Assembly (NCBI GenBank): GCA_022450595.1
Contig: JAKUPT010000010.1
Coordinates: 1 to 60,186, forward strand
Source: Bdellovibrionales bacterium
Lineage (GTDB): Bacteria > Bdellovibrionota > Bdellovibrionia > Bdellovibrionales > UBA1609
Direction: 5' to 3'
DNA length: 60,186 nucleotides
This document shows positions 41,030-48,442 of this stretch, one piece after another (positions within the stretch are counted from its first letter, which is position 1; each line of letters starts with the position of its first letter). The position numbers and the translations under genes are program-made. Under the pieces are notes generated by a model that saw nothing but the letters and a program-made list of their open reading frames with translations, made no database searches and was not told the origin of the DNA.

Positions 41030-42157
41030 TTAATTTTTTACAGACTCAATAGCCTCAAGTCTATTACAAAGCCCTGGATACGACCTAATGGAGCGTTGAA
41101 CATCTGCCCGCCTGCAATGAATGTTATCCTCCGTAGTACCATGAAGTTTAATTAAAGCTCTTCTTAAATCATTCTTTGAAAAACCGGCTTTTATTAAAAT
41201 TTCAGCTCCAACAACATCGGCCTCAATTTCAATGACAGGTGTCTTTTGAGCAAACTCGTGTAGGATCATATTAAGATGAGTTTGTTCATCCACTTGCCTG
41301 TAAAATTCATGCTTCTTACCTGTGACTATCCATAATAGCCACTCCATTGTTAGTTGGCCAAAATGACGACTGCCAGATGCTATTAACTGACCTAAAGTTT
41401 TTAAACTATGACCTCTATCTCCATGAGCAATTTCGTGGGCTAAGATTGCTCTTAAGGCATCAGGGTCTTCTTGCAAATCCTCATACAGAGCCGTAGAAAT
41501 AAAAACAGAACATCCGGTATTAAATGCATTTTTAAAGTCTAGCTCTACTAGATAAGCCTGGTAACAGTCCTGCATGCCGTAATCATAGCTATGGTATTTG
41601 ATCTCATCTAAAAGATCATTGAGATGTCTGTTTTGTTTAAAATACTTAGTGCTTTCCTTACCTCTAAGAGCTGCGTCGGCCATACCAAGAGCCATTTTGT
41701 GCTCTTCAATGGCTTGATGACCTTTTAGTCTTTCTAGGTTCTTCCAAATTTGAAAAATAAAATTTTCGTAACCTACTTTTAAAAAAGCAGGAATGTCAGA
41801 CAAGTATCTATAGGTGGTGGGGTGCTGGGACTGATAGTACTCATGGGTGTTTAATAAAGTTTTGTCAAATTTAGGCTTTAAAGACTTATAGGAGTCATAG
41901 GCAAGATCTGCAACATCAGAGCCTAGATAGTTATAATACAAAGAGTAGCCTTTAATGATTTTAGGCTGAAGCTTTGTTTTAAACTCATGTCCCCAATAAA
42001 ACTTAACAAATTCCACTCTAGGAGCAATGAATTCTGACACCTGTTCATATTTTTCAAACACCTGGCCTTGAAGTTTCTCCCAAAAACCAAGTTCTTTTGC
42101 AGATAAATTTAAGCTTGTAAACATTAAGAAAAATACAACAGCAAATCTCATCATCAC
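41030..42157 (-). CDS. Secreted M48-family zinc metallopeptidase
   Basis: Signal peptide; NAF, ILAHEIAH and EIEAD motifs. Confidence 0.8.
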   Translation of the reverse strand: MMMRFAVVFFLMFTSLNLSAKELGFWEKLQGQVFEKYEQVSEFIAPRVEFVKFYWGHEFKTKLQPKIIKGYSLYYNYLGSDVADLAYDSYKSLKPKFDKTLLNTHEYYQSQHPTTYRYLSDIPAFLKVGYENFIFQIWKNLERLKGHQAIEEHKMALGMADAALRGKESTKYFKQNRHLNDLLDEIKYHSYDYGMQDCYQAYLVELDFKNAFNTGCSVFISTALYEDLQEDPDALRAILAHEIAHGDRGHSLKTLGQLIASGSRHFGQLTMEWLLWIVTGKKHEFYRQVDEQTHLNMILHEFAQKTPVIEIEADVVGAEILIKAGFSKNDLRRALIKLHGTTEDNIHCRRADVQRSIRSYPGLCNRLEAIESVKN

Positions 42158-42385: not shown

Positions 42386-42922
42386 ATGAAATACCTAATT
42401 TTATTTTTGAGTGTGTTAATAATCAGCTGCCAACACCACTCCCCTAAATCTTCAAAAGACTGGACAAAGGGATCTTGGGGTGACACTGAATACTCAATGT
42501 ATAAAGGCTTATATTTTTCAGGTCAGCCAGATATGGAAGAGCTAGAACAGGCCATTACAGATGACAACATAAAGGCCATTGTAAACTTAAGACCAAAAAG
42601 CGAAGATCCTAAAGTTTTTGAAAACGAGCTTGAGCTTGCTGGCAAAAAAAATGTGGCTTACTACAACATCCCAATTGATGGCTCAAAAGAGCTTGATAAA
42701 AAGCAAATGGACAAGATTGAAACCGTTGTCAGAAAACACCACAAGAATAAAGAAAATGTCATCATACATTGCAGTTCAGGGCAAAGAGCCATGACATGGT
42801 TTGCGGTTCACCTTATCGAGCACCACAAAATGAGTTTAGATAAAGGTTTAAAACTTTCAGAAAAAGGTGGCCTAGAAAAAGACGGCTTAAAAGAAAAAGT
42901 GAGAACTTACTTTAAAAAGTAA
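42386..42922 (+). CDS. DUF442/BLH-like sulfurtransferase or phosphatase-fold lipoprotein
   Basis: IISC lipobox; SGQP, IVNLR and HCSSGQR motifs. Confidence 0.78.
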   Translation: MKYLILFLSVLIISCQHHSPKSSKDWTKGSWGDTEYSMYKGLYFSGQPDMEELEQAITDDNIKAIVNLRPKSEDPKVFENELELAGKKNVAYYNIPIDGSKELDKKQMDKIETVVRKHHKNKENVIIHCSSGQRAMTWFAVHLIEHHKMSLDKGLKLSEKGGLEKDGLKEKVRTYFKK

Positions 42923-43864: not shown

Positions 43865-44431
43865 ATAATATGAAGTTGAAAAATACCTCATTTACTTGAA
43901 TATCTGACCTCCTCACAGATATGGCAACACTATGATCGGAAATTAATATATAATTTAAAGTTGGGTATAAACTGCAAGTTACCCACCTCCTGAAGATTTT
44001 TTCCACAGATGGCCTAGCCCCGCTTAAAGCCGGAGAGGCCTAAAGCTGTAAAATGTCAGCGAAAAGGGTCATAATTCAATATGCTTTACCAGAACTTACC
44101 TTTGAACAGGTTTGTGGATTCTCTGAGAATGATGCTCAATTATAGCTTGTGAAAGATGAAGGAACTCGTTGGTCTAACAAGCTTCCATGACCAAGGACAG
44201 ATAAAATAAACATCAAAATTCTGGTCAAGTTTCTTTGAGATAATAGCCATTCCAGTGAAAATGTCAGGGTGAGAAATCTCTTGCCCCGATGGGAAAAATT
44301 AGCTCGAGATTTGGGGTGCAAGAAGTGACGGCGCTCACTCATACACAAAATTCCGTACAGTCTCGTTCTAATCTCTGCAGGGCTATCTTATGACTTTTAA
44401 AGTTTTAATTAGTATATTTTCATACAAATTA

Positions 44432-45877
44432 TTATTTATTATGTACTAAATATCCATTTGCATAGTACGTATGACTGCGATCATCATCCGGACTAACTGG
44501 TGATCCATAAGCGGCCTCTAGTTTTAAATTGTACACTGTCAAACTTTGATTCCTTATTTGAATAGCATCAGAGTACTCTAATAATTCTGTTCGGTTTTCT
44601 ATACGAATTAACTGATCACCTAAGCCTAAAGCTCCATCCACAATAAATTTATTATGCTCTAAGAATGTTGCTACCGGATTAAAAGACTTCCATTCTTCAT
44701 CTCCTGTATTAGGATTGACAGTTTTCACCGGATGCTCTGAAGTTATAAAGTGGTTGTCGTCATTAAAGGAGTGTAAATATCTATCTCCCAGAGGAACTCT
44801 TTCAATTCCTACCACTTCATTAATGGCTCCACCTTGACCTAATACCAAGTCACCAATTTTAACTTTGGAAATAACAACTTCACTCACCCCATCGGCCATA
44901 AGGATTTTGGTTTCAGCGGTAAAACAACTGCTACCGGCACCACCACCTGAACCCGGATCATGGCGACATCCTGGAGGCCCTCCGGAAATTTTACCATCGT
45001 TACATCTGTATTTTCCACTTCCGCCGCCAGTGTAACGACCACTACAGTGTCTATGATAAGTTTTTGAACTTTCGCCATGTTTTATTGAAATAGTACCGCT
45101 TCTAGTTCTTACATTATTACAATGCCTATAGCATGTTTCAGTTTTTCCATAAATTTTTCCAGAATCACAGTATCCAGCCTTATAGCAAATTTTAGTTCTA
45201 CTATCATAGGGAGTCCTATAACTTTCATTGTGTTCAACAACTTTTTTTGCATCTTTAACAAATCCACAAGATACATGATTTAAAGCAGAACACTTCTCAG
45301 TGCCGTCACTTTGCTTCGTATATTTTCCATCTAAAGTTTCACACATTTGTTTTTTTGTAATTTCAGGCTCTTTAGCACAACTTAAAATTTCTCTAGTTGT
45401 GGGATCTACCGTTAAAAGCACAGTTCCGGCCTGTTGGGGTTTTAGCTCTCCACCTATGAGTTGAACTCTTGGCTTGAAAGTCACCATAAGGTCGGCCTTA
45501 TACTGGTCAGATGTTCCTTGCCTAGATGAATCCTCAATATAAACTCTAGCAATATCTAGATTTTGATCATATTGCTCGCCAGATTTTAATACACGTCCAT
45601 CTTGAAGTCGGAATGTTAAATCCATTCCGTCACCACCGGGGCGTGCTTTTGAGTGATCATAACGTTGCGTGGTACCAGTGATCGCATATTCACATGTGTC
45701 TTCAACAGAAATCATTGTTTGAAGCTCATTAATCAGTACAAAGCTCGACATTTTAACTTCTGTTCTTTTGGTGGCTTTAGTTGACATGACCATCATTTGA
45801 GACAGACCCAGTGTTACAACAGATGTTAGCCCTACCGCCACCATCACCTGAATTAAACTCATTCCTTTATTATTCAT
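44432..45877 (-). CDS. Type IV pilin-like protein with Cys-rich domain and C-terminal Hint (intein-like) domain
   Basis: Class III signal MNNKG/MSLIQVMVAVGL; Hint motifs CFTAETKI, TSEHP, VYNL and YYANGYLVHNK*. Confidence 0.85.
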   Translation of the reverse strand: MNNKGMSLIQVMVAVGLTSVVTLGLSQMMVMSTKATKRTEVKMSSFVLINELQTMISVEDTCEYAITGTTQRYDHSKARPGGDGMDLTFRLQDGRVLKSGEQYDQNLDIARVYIEDSSRQGTSDQYKADLMVTFKPRVQLIGGELKPQQAGTVLLTVDPTTREILSCAKEPEITKKQMCETLDGKYTKQSDGTEKCSALNHVSCGFVKDAKKVVEHNESYRTPYDSRTKICYKAGYCDSGKIYGKTETCYRHCNNVRTRSGTISIKHGESSKTYHRHCSGRYTGGGSGKYRCNDGKISGGPPGCRHDPGSGGGAGSSCFTAETKILMADGVSEVVISKVKIGDLVLGQGGAINEVVGIERVPLGDRYLHSFNDDNHFITSEHPVKTVNPNTGDEEWKSFNPVATFLEHNKFIVDGALGLGDQLIRIENRTELLEYSDAIQIRNQSLTVYNLKLEAAYGSPVSPDDDRSHTYYANGYLVHNK

Positions 45878-46016
45878 AGGCTCTCACTTTTTAAAGATTC
45901 AATTTTATATCAGAATGACTGGTGGTTTTCTAAATAAGGAACATCTCAACATGATACAGAAATACGGTGTTTTTTGATTAAAATTTTGTTAGGCTAATTT
46001 TTAGGAGATCAAGACA

Positions 46017-46466
46017 ATGTCATTATTTTTTCAAACCATATATATCGCTTCAGATCATGCCGGATTTGACTTAAAATCAAAGGTTCTCCAGCACTTTAAA
46101 GACCTGCCCCTAGTGGACTTAGGATGCCCTAATAAAGAGCGAGTAGATTACCCAGATTATGCTCACAAATTAGTGCAAAAGATTGCTTTAGAGCCCTCGG
46201 ATTCGGCAACATTTAAATCTATGGGTATTTTGATCTGTGGATCTGGACAAGGGGTGGCCATGGCTGCTAATAAAGAAGCTCATATAAGGGCGGCCCTTTG
46301 TTGGAATAAAGAAAGTGCTGAGCTTTCAAGGCTTCACAACAATGCCAATATATTATGCCTTGGTGAGCGATTGATTGAAGAAAAAACAGCCCTTGAAATT
46401 ATAGATGTGTTTTTTAAAACTCAATTTGAAGGCGGAAGACACGCTGATAGAGTAAAAAAGATTTAA
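46017..46466 (+). CDS. rpiB: Ribose-5-phosphate isomerase B
   Basis: ASDHAG, DYPDY, CGSGQG, HNNAN and FEGGRH motifs. Confidence 0.96.
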
Positions 46467-46477
46467 AAGGAACGTAT

Positions 46478-47710
46478 ATGGATTATTTAAAATCGACTGA
46501 TGAACAAATTTTTAATCTCATTGAAAAAGAAACTGCGAGGCAAGAGTTTGGCTTAGAGATGATCGCCTCTGAAAACTACACCTCTAAGGCTGTAATGGAA
46601 GCTCAAGGTTCGGTGTTAACCAATAAATACGCTGAAGGCTATCCTGGTAAGCGCTACTATGGTGGATGTGAGTTTGTTGATGAGATCGAGCAGCTTGCTA
46701 TAGATCGTGCAAAAGAGTTATTTAAAGCCGAACATGCAAATGTGCAACCCCATTCCGGCTCTCAAGCCAATATGGCGGTTTATTTGGCCGAACTCAAAGC
46801 CGGTGACACGGTGATGGGCATGGACTTATCCCATGGTGGACACCTCACGCACGGCTCCCCAGTAAACTTTAGTGGCATGCTCTTTAATGCGTGCAGCTAC
46901 GGACTGAATTCTGAAACGGAACTGCTTGATTACGACAACATTATGGATGTGGCTAAAAAAAATAAACCGCAACTAATAATTGCTGGCTACAGTGCATACC
47001 CTAGATTTTTAGACTTTGAAAAGTTTAAAGAAATCGCAGACTCTGTTGGTGCAAAACTATTAGTGGATATGGCGCACTTTGCCGGTCTTGTGGCCTCAGG
47101 GCACCACCCTTCTCCGGTTGAGTATGCAGATTACATCACTACCACCACTCATAAAACCCTAAGAGGCCCCAGAGGGGGAATGATTTTATGCAAAGAGGAG
47201 CATGCAAAAAAACTCAACTCTAGAATTTTCCCAGGCATTCAAGGCGGTCCACTGGAGCACGTTATCGCTGCCAAAGCGGTTGCCTATAAAGAGGCTCTAA
47301 GTGAGGACTTTAAAACTTATATTGATCAAGTGATTAAAAACGCCAAAGTTTTAGGTGAAACATTATCTGAAAAAGGAATCAAACTTGTCAGTGGTGGAAC
47401 AGACAACCACTTGCTTTTGATTGATCTTTCAAACAGAGAAATCACAGGTAAAGACGCCGAGATCGCACTAGGACATGCTGGCATAACTGTGAACAAAAAC
47501 ACTGTTCCCAATGAAAAAAGAAGCCCATTTGTTACCAGTGGAATACGCGTTGGAACACCAGCTCTGACCACTCGTGGCATGAAAGAAGAGCAGATGAAAA
47601 CCATTGGTGATTGGATTGCTTCGGTGATTGATAATGCCTCGAATGAAGACAAACTTCGTGAAATTAAAACTGACGTAGAGAACCTTTGTAAGGACTTTCC
47701 TCTGTATTAA
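46478..47710 (+). CDS. glyA: Serine hydroxymethyltransferase
   Basis: [19 protein letters not shown] and [14 protein letters not shown] motifs. Confidence 0.98.
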
Positions 47711-47800: not shown

Positions 47801-48331
47801 ATGAATATAAAAACAGCTGTGCTTTTTATTTTAGTTTTTCTCATCTCTGCTTGTTCGCATCTAAATATGCCGGCCTATAAAAAGCCAGCTCATTATAACT
47901 CATACAGTGCTCACAGTTACAGCTCTGGAGAGCTTGAGCTGATCTGGCCCATTGAAAGAGCAAGGCTCACACAGCCTTTTGCGCCTCCTGCAAACCCTAA
48001 ACATGATGGTATTGACTTAGCAGCTCCTCTAGGAACAAAGATATTTGCAGCCCACTCTGGGCGCGTGATTTTTGCCGGAAGAAAGTACCGTGGATACGGT
48101 AAAATGATTATTTTAAAATACAACAACTCCTATGCCACGCTCTACGCTCACTTACATAAAATTCATGTAAAGCGAGGCGACTGGGTTAAGGTCGGAGACA
48201 CCATTGCGGCCATGGGAAGCACTGGTAGATCCACCGGAGTGCACTTGCATTTTGAAGTTTTAAGAAACAAAATTCCAGTAAACCCACTGGCTTATTTAGA
48301 TCAAAGCTATATCAAAGTTGCTGACAAGTAA
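47801..48331 (+). CDS. M23 family peptidoglycan endopeptidase lipoprotein
   Basis: ISAC lipobox; HDGID, YAHL and HLHFE motifs. Confidence 0.92.
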   Translation: MNIKTAVLFILVFLISACSHLNMPAYKKPAHYNSYSAHSYSSGELELIWPIERARLTQPFAPPANPKHDGIDLAAPLGTKIFAAHSGRVIFAGRKYRGYGKMIILKYNNSYATLYAHLHKIHVKRGDWVKVGDTIAAMGSTGRSTGVHLHFEVLRNKIPVNPLAYLDQSYIKVADK

Positions 48332-48370
48332 TTATAATAAATAAAACAACTAAATCACTGAAGTACCAAA

Positions 48371-48442
48371 CTACAACTACAACTACAACTACAACTACAA
48401 CTACAACTACAACTACAACTACAACTACAACTACAACTACAA
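48371..48442. repeat. Hexanucleotide microsatellite (CTACAA)12
   Basis: Twelve perfect tandem copies counted directly. Confidence 0.97.

Follow-up and report, generated by a model that had tools for sequence, protein, structure and literature searches.

Bacterial intein-like (BIL) domains are reportedly described for the first time in two papers, Amitai et al. 2003 and Dassa et al. 2004. The A-type class is defined by a C-terminal His-Asn pair that is not followed by a +1 nucleophile, and its products are mostly those of cleavage, with some splicing through thioester aminolysis; the domains occur in non-conserved, variable and exported bacterial proteins (PMC4031507, PMC7765530). The parts of the review literature drawn on here assign bacterial BIL domains no physiological role. 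Modular type IV pilins are known mainly as carriers of binding modules. Those that are bulky have been argued, and modelled, to fit only at the filament tip (PMC8179133), and the tip complex of a type 4 filament is capped by a subunit that lacks the Glu at mature position +5 (Glu5) (PMC10191384). Described here is a gene of a Bdellovibrionales bacterium (assembly GCA_022450595.1) in which the module grafted onto a pilin-like protein appears to be a self-processing domain with its catalytic residues intact. The gene lies on the minus strand of positions 1 to 60,186 of contig JAKUPT010000010.1, a stretch of 60,186 nt referred to as the window, and its product is 481 aa long. The reading preferred here, with a probability of roughly 0.55, is that of a modular minor pilin, tip-type, of a marine Bdellovibrionales-type bacterium, whose terminal BIL domain would remove itself at Ser317|Cys318, with hydrolysis as the default.

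The protein starts with MNNKG and continues with MSLIQVMVAVGL, so that mature position +5 is occupied by Gln. The Cys-rich repeats, two in number (VEHNESYRTPYDSRTKICYKAGYCDSGKIYG and IKHGESSKTYHRHCSGRYTGGGSGKYRCNDGKISG), precede a linker whose GSGGGAGSS segment occupies residues 309-317, and the Hint motifs are Cys318, T379-S-E-H382, VYNL at 448-451 and H479-N480, after which only K481 and the stop codon are found. The prepilin leader, Cys-rich repeats, linker, complete Hint domain and lone Lys before the stop that an initial annotation of this DNA had listed are thus all located in the one open reading frame (ORF). The annotation had placed Cys1 at 44926 with the strand unstated, which agrees with the Cys318 codon on the minus strand (Table 1), and had remarked on the absence of a +1 Cys, Ser or Thr, a position that is indeed occupied by Lys481. 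In Pfam, the protein matches Hom_end_hint at E 3.5e-8 (34.1 bits against a cut-off of 32.1, residues 318-360) and, more weakly, Vint (E 0.004) and Hint_2 (E 0.054). NCBIfam gives weak matches only, to PilV, pseudopilin and ComGE models at the N-terminus and to an intein N-terminus model.

An AlphaFold2 model of the full protein, built from a 44-sequence alignment, has a mean predicted local distance difference test score (pLDDT) of 86.7. It consists of a 50-residue helix (8-57), an antiparallel sheet of four strands (107-169), beta-rich Cys modules (185-299), a disordered segment (305-315) and a compact Hint domain (318-480). The best structural match of the modelled Hint domain is BIL2 of Tetrahymena (6tmm), with a VIA Z of 18.7, a root-mean-square deviation (rmsd) of 2.7 and 144 aligned residues, and a Foldseek E of 3.6e-9 at probability 1.00. 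The BIL of Clostridium thermocellum (2lwy) aligns at Z 16.6 (rmsd 1.8, 130 aligned), the gp41-1 intein at Z 15.8 and Hedgehog (1at0) at Z 15.6, all by VIA; solved BIL, intein and Hedgehog structures match overall at Z 10-18.7. Judged from the model, the C-terminal domain has, without ambiguity, the fold of a Hint domain. A profile made from 19 Hint members of the subfamily places BIL2 first (E 1.4e-16, profile positions 3-143) and the C. thermocellum BIL second (E 8.8e-14), the named intein structures listed reaching E 4.5e-9 at best, and the profile alignment contains a WKS motif common to BIL2 and this Hint subfamily. By modelled fold and by sequence profile, then, the domain is closest to BIL domains.

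The residues expected to carry the chemistry are strictly kept. In a 12-sequence alignment of the family S317, C318, E381, H382, P383, H479, N480 and K481 are invariant, and T379 is present in at least 90% of the sequences. In the 19-sequence Hint alignment T63, H66 and the His-Asn pair are invariant and the Cys at position 2 is found in at least 90%; Hint alignment A4 took 16 of 32 GTDB loci that carry the Hint subfamily, with loci of the candidate phyla radiation (e.g., L029) left out because they do not translate under table 11. The fold and sequence features of an A-type BIL, i.e., Hint fold, N-terminal Cys, Thr-x-x-His, C-terminal His-Asn and no +1 Cys, Ser or Thr, are all found.

Three other assignments of the domain were considered and rejected. 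An intein is ruled out by Lys at +1, a "C-extein" of a single residue and a host protein that is fast-evolving and non-conserved. A Hedgehog/Hog domain is ruled out since the protein ends one residue past the Hint core and has no sterol-recognition region, and Pfam Hint (PF01079) gives no match at E<=1; the Hedgehog-like small-molecule or sterol adduct raised in the initial annotation is weak for want of that same region. A pretoxin HINT domain (PF07591) is ruled out by the lack of a match to the 481-aa protein at E<=1, by the stop after HNK and by the lack of any downstream same-strand ORF longer than 70 aa. In the 953 bases that follow the stop codon, the ORFs on this strand measure only 47-70 aa, in agreement with the earlier remark that no toxin follows.

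It might still be proposed that the domain is the remnant of a polymorphic-toxin (PT-HINT) gene without its toxin, or a degenerate intein. Weak PF07591 matches do occur in relatives (P0078, E 8.7e-4; P0084, E 2.4e-3; P and L numbers designate collected proteins and loci), and one IPR012902-PF07591 architecture appears in Dataset S1 of PMC8179133. However, intact paralogs and relatives stop 1-4 residues after His-Asn, no toxin or immunity ORF lies downstream, and the Hint part is under strong purifying selection, as described below. A degenerate intein is further at odds with the lack of a +1 nucleophile, of a homing endonuclease and of a conserved host protein that is interrupted. Such an origin is considered extremely improbable.

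The Hint-less body (residues 1-316) was searched against 1.84 billion representatives and gave 80 clusters at E<=0.001, which have in common a part corresponding to residues ~1-200 and have variable C-termini. In a 66-row alignment of the body (A3) the consensus N-terminus is GFSLIEV, a canonical prepilin start; at least 90% of the rows have Gly in the Gly5 column, and all of them share Cys62 and Cys167. Among 40 body relatives scanned with Pfam N_methyl, 22 match at E<=0.01 and 12 score above the cut-off (e.g., P0100 with 34.3 bits and P0090 with 32.2 bits). The protein itself displays a class III signal, with a short basic leader, Gly at -1 and then ~20 hydrophobic residues, but has Gln in place of Glu at mature +5. 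At this position the 66 rows have Glu in 37 and Gln in 24; the Hint domain is carried by 13 Gln5 rows in addition to the query, and by two Glu5 rows (P0030 and the truncated P0095). A model of the body alone has a pLDDT of 91.9. In the ESM Atlas the only leads are below 0.9, and are Bdellovibrionota N_methyl clusters at 0.87-0.89.

The genome encodes two A24 prepilin peptidases (PF01478, at contig C22 with 81.5 bits and contig C96 with 46.9 bits), four secretins, and 14 ORFs with a prepilin motif. Those that are major-pilin-like, or belong to a pseudopilin cluster of the type II secretion system (T2SS), keep Glu5, and Gln5 is limited to five copies of the family described here and one other ORF. 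Three things underlie the pilin reading, namely the N-terminal motif, the relatives above the Pfam N_methyl cut-off and the topology of the model, from which the body is, at the family level, a predicted prepilin-type, pilin-like protein. ORF, motifs, Pfam, AlphaFold2 model and fold matches all agree with the earlier proposal of a prepilin-type protein fused to a terminal, complete Hint domain. The same proposal made the protein a pilus-tip subunit, and here the outcome is mixed: the loss of Glu5 fits a tip or cap subunit, whereas the gene lies outside any pilus operon. A tip location is suggested because a subunit without Glu5 caps the tip complex in PMC10191384, and because bulky modular pilins fit only the tip in the modelling of PMC8179133.

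Other members of the body family carry other C-terminal modules: P0108 has a Peptidase_S74 domain (E 3.8e-16), and P0142 has two copies of the collagen IV C4/NC1 domain (E 7.4e-32). Comparison of the Cys-rich stalk with complement-control (sushi) modules gave Z 4-4.9 at an rmsd of 6-7 A only, and was treated as noise.

The gene is one of several related copies in this genome, which measures 3.06 Mb in 156 contigs. Four copies are intact: the gene under study (contig C2) and those on C12 (456 aa, from the start that matches P0005), C148 (412 aa) and C3 (426 aa). A copy on C139 (C139:1-792, +) begins at the contig end and has an apparent frameshift between the body and Hint frames; it could be a pseudogene or an assembly error. 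The copy on C4 (C4:465-1274, +; P0076) is a Hint-less body that stops at the junction (...NSSCMVLGG-stop), and thus the body also exists without the Hint domain. Five of the six copies are within ~3 kb of a contig end. A hidden Markov model of the Hint domain detects five Hint domains over the genome, all in this pilin-BIL family, and all five end in HNK or HNKP. Likewise, the Hint-less query led to eight Hint-bearing relatives whose C-termini are complete, and all eight have Lys at +1, with at most three further residues, and all intact paralogs and relatives have their stop codon 1-4 residues past His-Asn. Recent truncation of a longer gene after HNK, which the initial annotation had named beforehand as a result that would overturn its proposal, is excluded by this common ending of the five genome copies and eight relatives. 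With a high-confidence Hint fold in the model and its recurrence with the same N-terminal part in paralogs and metagenomic relatives, the pilin-like plus Hint architecture is, on these predictions, beyond chance.

Global DNA identity between the paralogs is uninformative, with unrelated regions at ~0.64, and codon-based rates of nonsynonymous (dN) and synonymous (dS) change were used instead. Synonymous sites are saturated between paralogs (dS above 1, in some comparisons undefined), which makes the paralogs old, and only the contrast within the closest pair, C12 and C148, is quoted: dN 0.08 and dS 1.28 for the Hint domain, and dN 0.69 and dS 1.76 for the body. Thus the Hint domain is under strong purifying selection and the body is diverging. 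Recent gene conversion of a Hint cassette among the paralogs was also considered, and is ruled out by the Hint dS of 1.28 in this closest pair. The paralogs, at least five in number, resemble a set of surface or adhesin subunits that has diversified.

A Hint domain retained without catalysis, and displayed at the C-terminus of the pilin for structure or adhesion, should also be considered, in view of the 264 architectures of modular pilins, commonly with grafted binding modules, in PMC8179133. It is however hard to reconcile with the Cys1, TxxH and His-Asn catalytic positions, which are kept across paralogs with saturated synonymous sites, with the disordered Gly/Ser linker that precedes Cys1, and with the existence of a Hint-less paralog, and is regarded as very unlikely.

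For the preferred reading, the following course of events is proposed. The class III signal peptide would insert the protein in the inner membrane, where a prepilin peptidase of the genome would remove MNNKG; body, stalk and BIL domain would, from the topology, fold in the periplasm. An N-to-S acyl shift at Ser317-Cys318 would then form a thioester, the resolution of which would sever the BIL domain and leave pilin and stalk with a new C-terminus, and cyclisation of Asn480 would release Lys481. The mature subunit, without Glu5 and with a bulky stalk, would be placed at the tip of a type IV filament, where it may present its variable stalk. Self-cleavage is expected because the catalytic residues are fully conserved and because BIL relatives have measured activities. 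The default fate of the thioester would be hydrolysis, with BIL acting as a self-removing C-terminal pro-domain, since BILs give mainly cleavage in vitro and since P0108, of the same body family, carries the self-cleaving Peptidase_S74; transfer to an amine is the main alternative.

Several observations weigh against this reading. The 481-aa protein reaches only E 0.11 with Pfam N_methyl (PF07963), at 12.5 bits under a cut-off of 21.2. Foldseek with the body-only model returned no match at E<=0.001, and VIA gave a best Z of 4.1 and no significant match, although pilins and pseudopilins make up 17 of the 50 rows listed (Z 3.1-3.9). There are no pilus genes near the gene, and the other paralogs are equally solitary. 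Forty genomes from the same family or order contained no Hint-fused homolog, and only three of them gave body-only matches; the protein is therefore not a core pilus component. The His-Asn-Lys end is strictly kept but is needless for N-terminal cleavage alone, which suggests a role for the C-terminal junction, perhaps for the Lys. Cys318 must remain reduced in an oxidising periplasm, beside a Cys-rich stalk. In addition, BIL2, the nearest solved relative, makes Lys-epsilon isopeptide conjugates (PMC8616854) and thus speaks against a pure pro-domain.

The low N_methyl score, the solitary genes away from pilus loci and the fold searches with the body, together with Gln at +5 and its near confinement to this family in a genome whose major pilin and T2SS pseudopilins keep Glu5, would also fit a protein that is not part of a filament. 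Here the class III signal would act as an inner-membrane anchor or export signal, the loss of Glu5 would reflect lost polymerisation, and the BIL domain would still cleave itself. However, minor, non-core pilins are often encoded apart from pilus operons. The consensus of the broader family is the canonical prepilin start GFSLIE, the model has the lollipop arrangement of alpha1 and sheet, and tip-cap subunits of type IV filaments are normally without Glu5 (PMC10191384). A non-filament protein is unlikely, but is an alternative of some weight.

The conserved end bears on the fate of the thioester. Of 77 Hint C-terminal motifs in the collected proteins, 49 have Lys directly at +1 and 73 have it at either +1 or +2; these counts are not unbiased, because the proteins were gathered by words shared with the query, and the 32 loci by a pattern that contains HNK. 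The +1 Lys is, as far as sequence can tell, a signature of this Hint subfamily. In the main alternative, the thioester at Ser317 would be resolved by an amine and not by water, with an isopeptide or peptide bond formed from the C-terminus of the stalk. Three acceptors can be imagined: Lys481 itself, a Lys in some other protein of the pilus or envelope, and a Lys or other amine on the prey surface. The pilus tip would then be chemically reactive. In BIL2 an isopeptide bond between a Lys epsilon-amino group and the C-terminus is formed, and the N-terminal flank is conjugated to several substrates without ATP (PMC8616854); A-type BILs splice through thioester aminolysis (PMC4031507). The invariant +1 Lys, in 12 of 12 family members as in the eight complete Hint-bearing proteins from the Hint-less query, the strictly kept His-Asn and the WKS motif in common with BIL2 also favor transfer. 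Opposed to it are the mostly cleaved products of BILs in vitro (PMC4031507), and the expectation that Asn cyclisation would set free a lone Lys, which would diffuse off. The BIL-Lys module is also found inside proteins with long tails, so that the Lys may be a junction residue only, and in the 32-locus GTDB set the +1 Lys is built into the search pattern. The precedent of BIL2 and the strict retention of His-Asn-Lys keep ligation alive as an unlikely but reasonable alternative.

A more specific form may be envisaged, in which a latent thioester at the end of the stalk would weld the pilus tip to a partner on contact, with ejection of the BIL domain. The attacking amine could come from a Lys of an outer-membrane protein of the prey or of another protein of the pilus or envelope, or Lys481 could serve as relay. 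This is a speculative proposal and rather improbable, but if true it would be a Gram-negative, pilin-borne counterpart of the enzyme-free protein conjugation of BIL2, and the first physiological role for BIL domains in bacteria. The thioester adhesins of Gram-positive pili would be a second counterpart. Named relatives of this lineage need type IV pili for prey invasion (PMC4237445, PMC3983030). Should the domain of the preferred reading only trim itself, a new maturation step for a pilus subunit would be at hand; should the stalk be transferred to an amine, the result would be an enzyme-free covalent attachment at the pilus tip.

A prepilin N-terminus was found in only 2 among 29 of the 32 GTDB loci with the Hint subfamily: one locus is from a Bdellovibrionales metagenome-assembled genome (MAG), with a 1008-aa ORF that has five Cys-rich repeats and ends in HNK, and the other is from a Planctomycetia MAG. 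The copy number of the Cys module varies among relatives (P0084; L035). At least half of the sampled words of the gene are present in marine metagenomes, in seven runs from four studies. Strain-variant contigs match positions 44365-46600 and then diverge from the window just 3′ of the stop codon, and in metagenome contigs the nucleotide differences are clustered at 45048-45358. Compared with the strain variant P0002 (96% identity), residues 1-173 have no aa differences, residues 174-277 carry 12 substitutions and a 3-residue gap, and the Hint domain has two differences. This concentration of differences makes the stalk the variable, and presumably the exposed, part.

Variants of the adjacent GlyA (P0149, 95% identity; P0150, 93%) were compared with variants of the pilin-BIL protein (P0004, 66% over the aligned part; P0003, 76%). 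The longest contigs of the respective pairs are equal in length (3421 for P0149 and P0004, 4279 for P0150 and P0003), which suggests that each pair is on the same short contig. In that case the gene order would be conserved, with a pilin-BIL gene that evolves far more rapidly than glyA. The nearest named relatives of the GlyA protein, at 73-75% identity, are from Bdellovibrionaceae or Bdellovibrionales MAGs.

The neighbors of the gene are rpiB and glyA, which are divergent, genes for M48 and M23 peptidases and a gene for a DSP-type phosphatase (Table 1). Between the M23 peptidase gene and the gene that follows it, a hexanucleotide is repeated in perfect tandem, and slipped-strand phase variation might take place there. 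Within the 953 bases on the 3′ side of the pilin-BIL gene, a stretch of 50 bases has copies with 84% identity near the ends of two other contigs (C96:28-77 and C13:58219-58268), and is thus a short dispersed repeat. No Rfam match and no transfer RNA gene were found around the gene, including the 953 bases 3′ of the stop codon. A scan for promoters and terminators was no better than shuffled sequences (12 vs 9.8 and 2 vs 1.4, respectively), and there is no compositional anomaly, with a local GC of 0.32-0.46 and a genome value of 0.376.

Table 1. Positions of the pilin-BIL gene, its parts and adjacent features in the window.
Feature	Position	Strand	Basis or remark
Whole ORF, 481 aa + stop; prepilin-type modular protein with predicted C-terminal BIL/Hint domain	44432..45877	-	sequence, Pfam, AlphaFold2
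Leader peptide MNNKG, residues 1-5; predicted prepilin-peptidase cut after Gly5	45863..45877	-	sequence, Gly5 column; putative cleavage
Residues 6-57, hydrophobic N-terminus MSLIQVMVAVGLTSVVTLGLS; Gln10 = mature +5; long alpha1 helix	45707..45862	-	AlphaFold2 helix 8-57
Residues 58-173, globular pilin-like core; four-stranded antiparallel sheet 107-169; invariant Cys62 and Cys167	45359..45706	-	AlphaFold2 pLDDT >90, alignment
Residues 174-304, C-x3-(G/D)G-x-Y...C hairpin and two Cys-rich beta modules (H-x-E-S ... C-x-x-G-K-I-x-G); strain-variable	44966..45358	-	sequence, AlphaFold2, variants
Residues 305-317, flexible linker RHDPGSGGGAGSS, ending in invariant Ser317 (-1)	44927..44965	-	pLDDT <50 for 305-315; S317 in 12/12
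Residues 318-480, predicted A-type BIL (Hint) domain	44438..44926	-	fold, profile, invariant residues
Cys318 codon	44924-44926	-	
Thr379 codon	44741-44743	-	
His382 codon	44732-44734	-	
His479-Asn480 codons	44438-44443	-	
Lys481 (+1 residue, sole "C-extein") and stop codon	44432..44437	-	K481 invariant in 12-sequence alignment
M48 peptidase gene	41030-42157	-	signal-like N-terminus
DSP-type phosphatase gene	42386-42922	+	best Pfam match Tc-R-P, polymorphic-toxin-system phosphatase, E 1.1e-8
50-base stretch	43990-44039		
M23 peptidase gene	47801-48331	+	
Tandem repeat (AACTAC) x 12.3	48369-48442		

The BIL-Lys module, ending in ...YLVHNK-stop, is also present at the C-terminus of OMP_b-brl (PF13505) barrel proteins (P0014-P0017, P0020, P0021, P0024, P0026 and P0028), the source name of which is "outer membrane immunogenic protein". 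Between the end of the barrel (...GVSWKF) and the BIL domain, P0014 has ~40 residues that resemble an initial strand of a further barrel. Tandem arrays of two or three BIL domains, with Lys and Gly-rich linkers between them, are found in P0011, P0012, P0013 and P0068, e.g., ...VHNK-GGGGGGGAGN-CFTAET... Internal BIL-Lys domains are found in several Alpha- and Gammaproteobacteria (L016, L022, L024, L027), and these ORFs all end in ...A-I-x-x-G-W-(E/Q/S); from this common tail, a conserved partner segment at the C-terminus may be suspected. The terminal BIL-Lys signature is, by sequence comparison, common to the pilin-BIL family and other envelope proteins, and its presence on outer-membrane beta-barrels and in tandem arrays, in many phyla, suggests a wider, unstudied processing system of envelope proteins.

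Modular pilins and BIL domains are both known, and the new combination is a lineage-restricted paralogous family of pilin-BIL proteins. Full-text literature searches, made at the level of title and abstract and with a scope that did not extend to the original BIL papers, showed no paper on a pilin-Hint fusion among the matches listed. For both fields the family is a defined and tractable case, with natural controls in the paralogs, the Hint-less copy and the strain variants.

With the A-type BILs, e.g., that of C. thermocellum (2LWY), the domain described here has in common the five features listed above, as well as its setting in a bacterial protein that is non-conserved, variable and predicted to be exported. 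It differs in its fusion to a prepilin-type protein, in its location at the extreme C-terminus and in the single conserved Lys that serves as "C-extein". It also belongs to a subfamily of its own, marked by ...(Y/F)ANGYLVHNK and FVTAEHPF, which Pfam detects through Hom_end_hint and Vint only. BIL2 of the Tetrahymena thermophila BUBL protein (6TMM/6Y75) is the best match in structure and sequence, with Cys1, His-Asn and WKS in both. In contrast, BIL2 is eukaryotic, is flanked by ubiquitin-like domains and has been shown to conjugate to the epsilon group of Lys (PMC8616854), whereas the flank here is a pilin stalk, and the chemistry is a predicted one.

Similarity to the modular type IV pilins (Streptococcus sanguinis PilB and PilC; Raynaud et al. 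2021, PMC8179133) lies in the grafted C-terminal module and the predicted fit at the tip only. In contrast, the modules grafted in that paper either serve in binding or are peptidases (vWA, lectin, S74, M26). Its main text does not contain the words "Hint" or "intein", and of 12 Hint-related identifiers sought in its supplementary text only IPR012902-PF07591 occurs, in one row with 1 protein. Dataset S1 of the same paper contains 29+4 pilin-Peptidase_S74 proteins. These are similar in having a self-cleaving C-terminal module on a pilin-like carrier, as does P0108 of the body family, but their fold and chemistry are unrelated to those of Hint. The S74 domain is a folding chaperone that is cleaved off.

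Hedgehog/Hog (1AT0) likewise has a terminal Hint module, which cleaves at its own Cys1 and transfers the N-terminal product, and matches the model at the Z given above. The protein described here differs in that it has no sterol-recognition region and keeps the intein-type His-Asn, and its sequence similarity to Hedgehog is lower than that to BILs. Bürglin 2008 (PMC2362128) notes another group of bacterial proteins, distinct from this one, that are secreted and have a Hint-like domain at the C-terminus.

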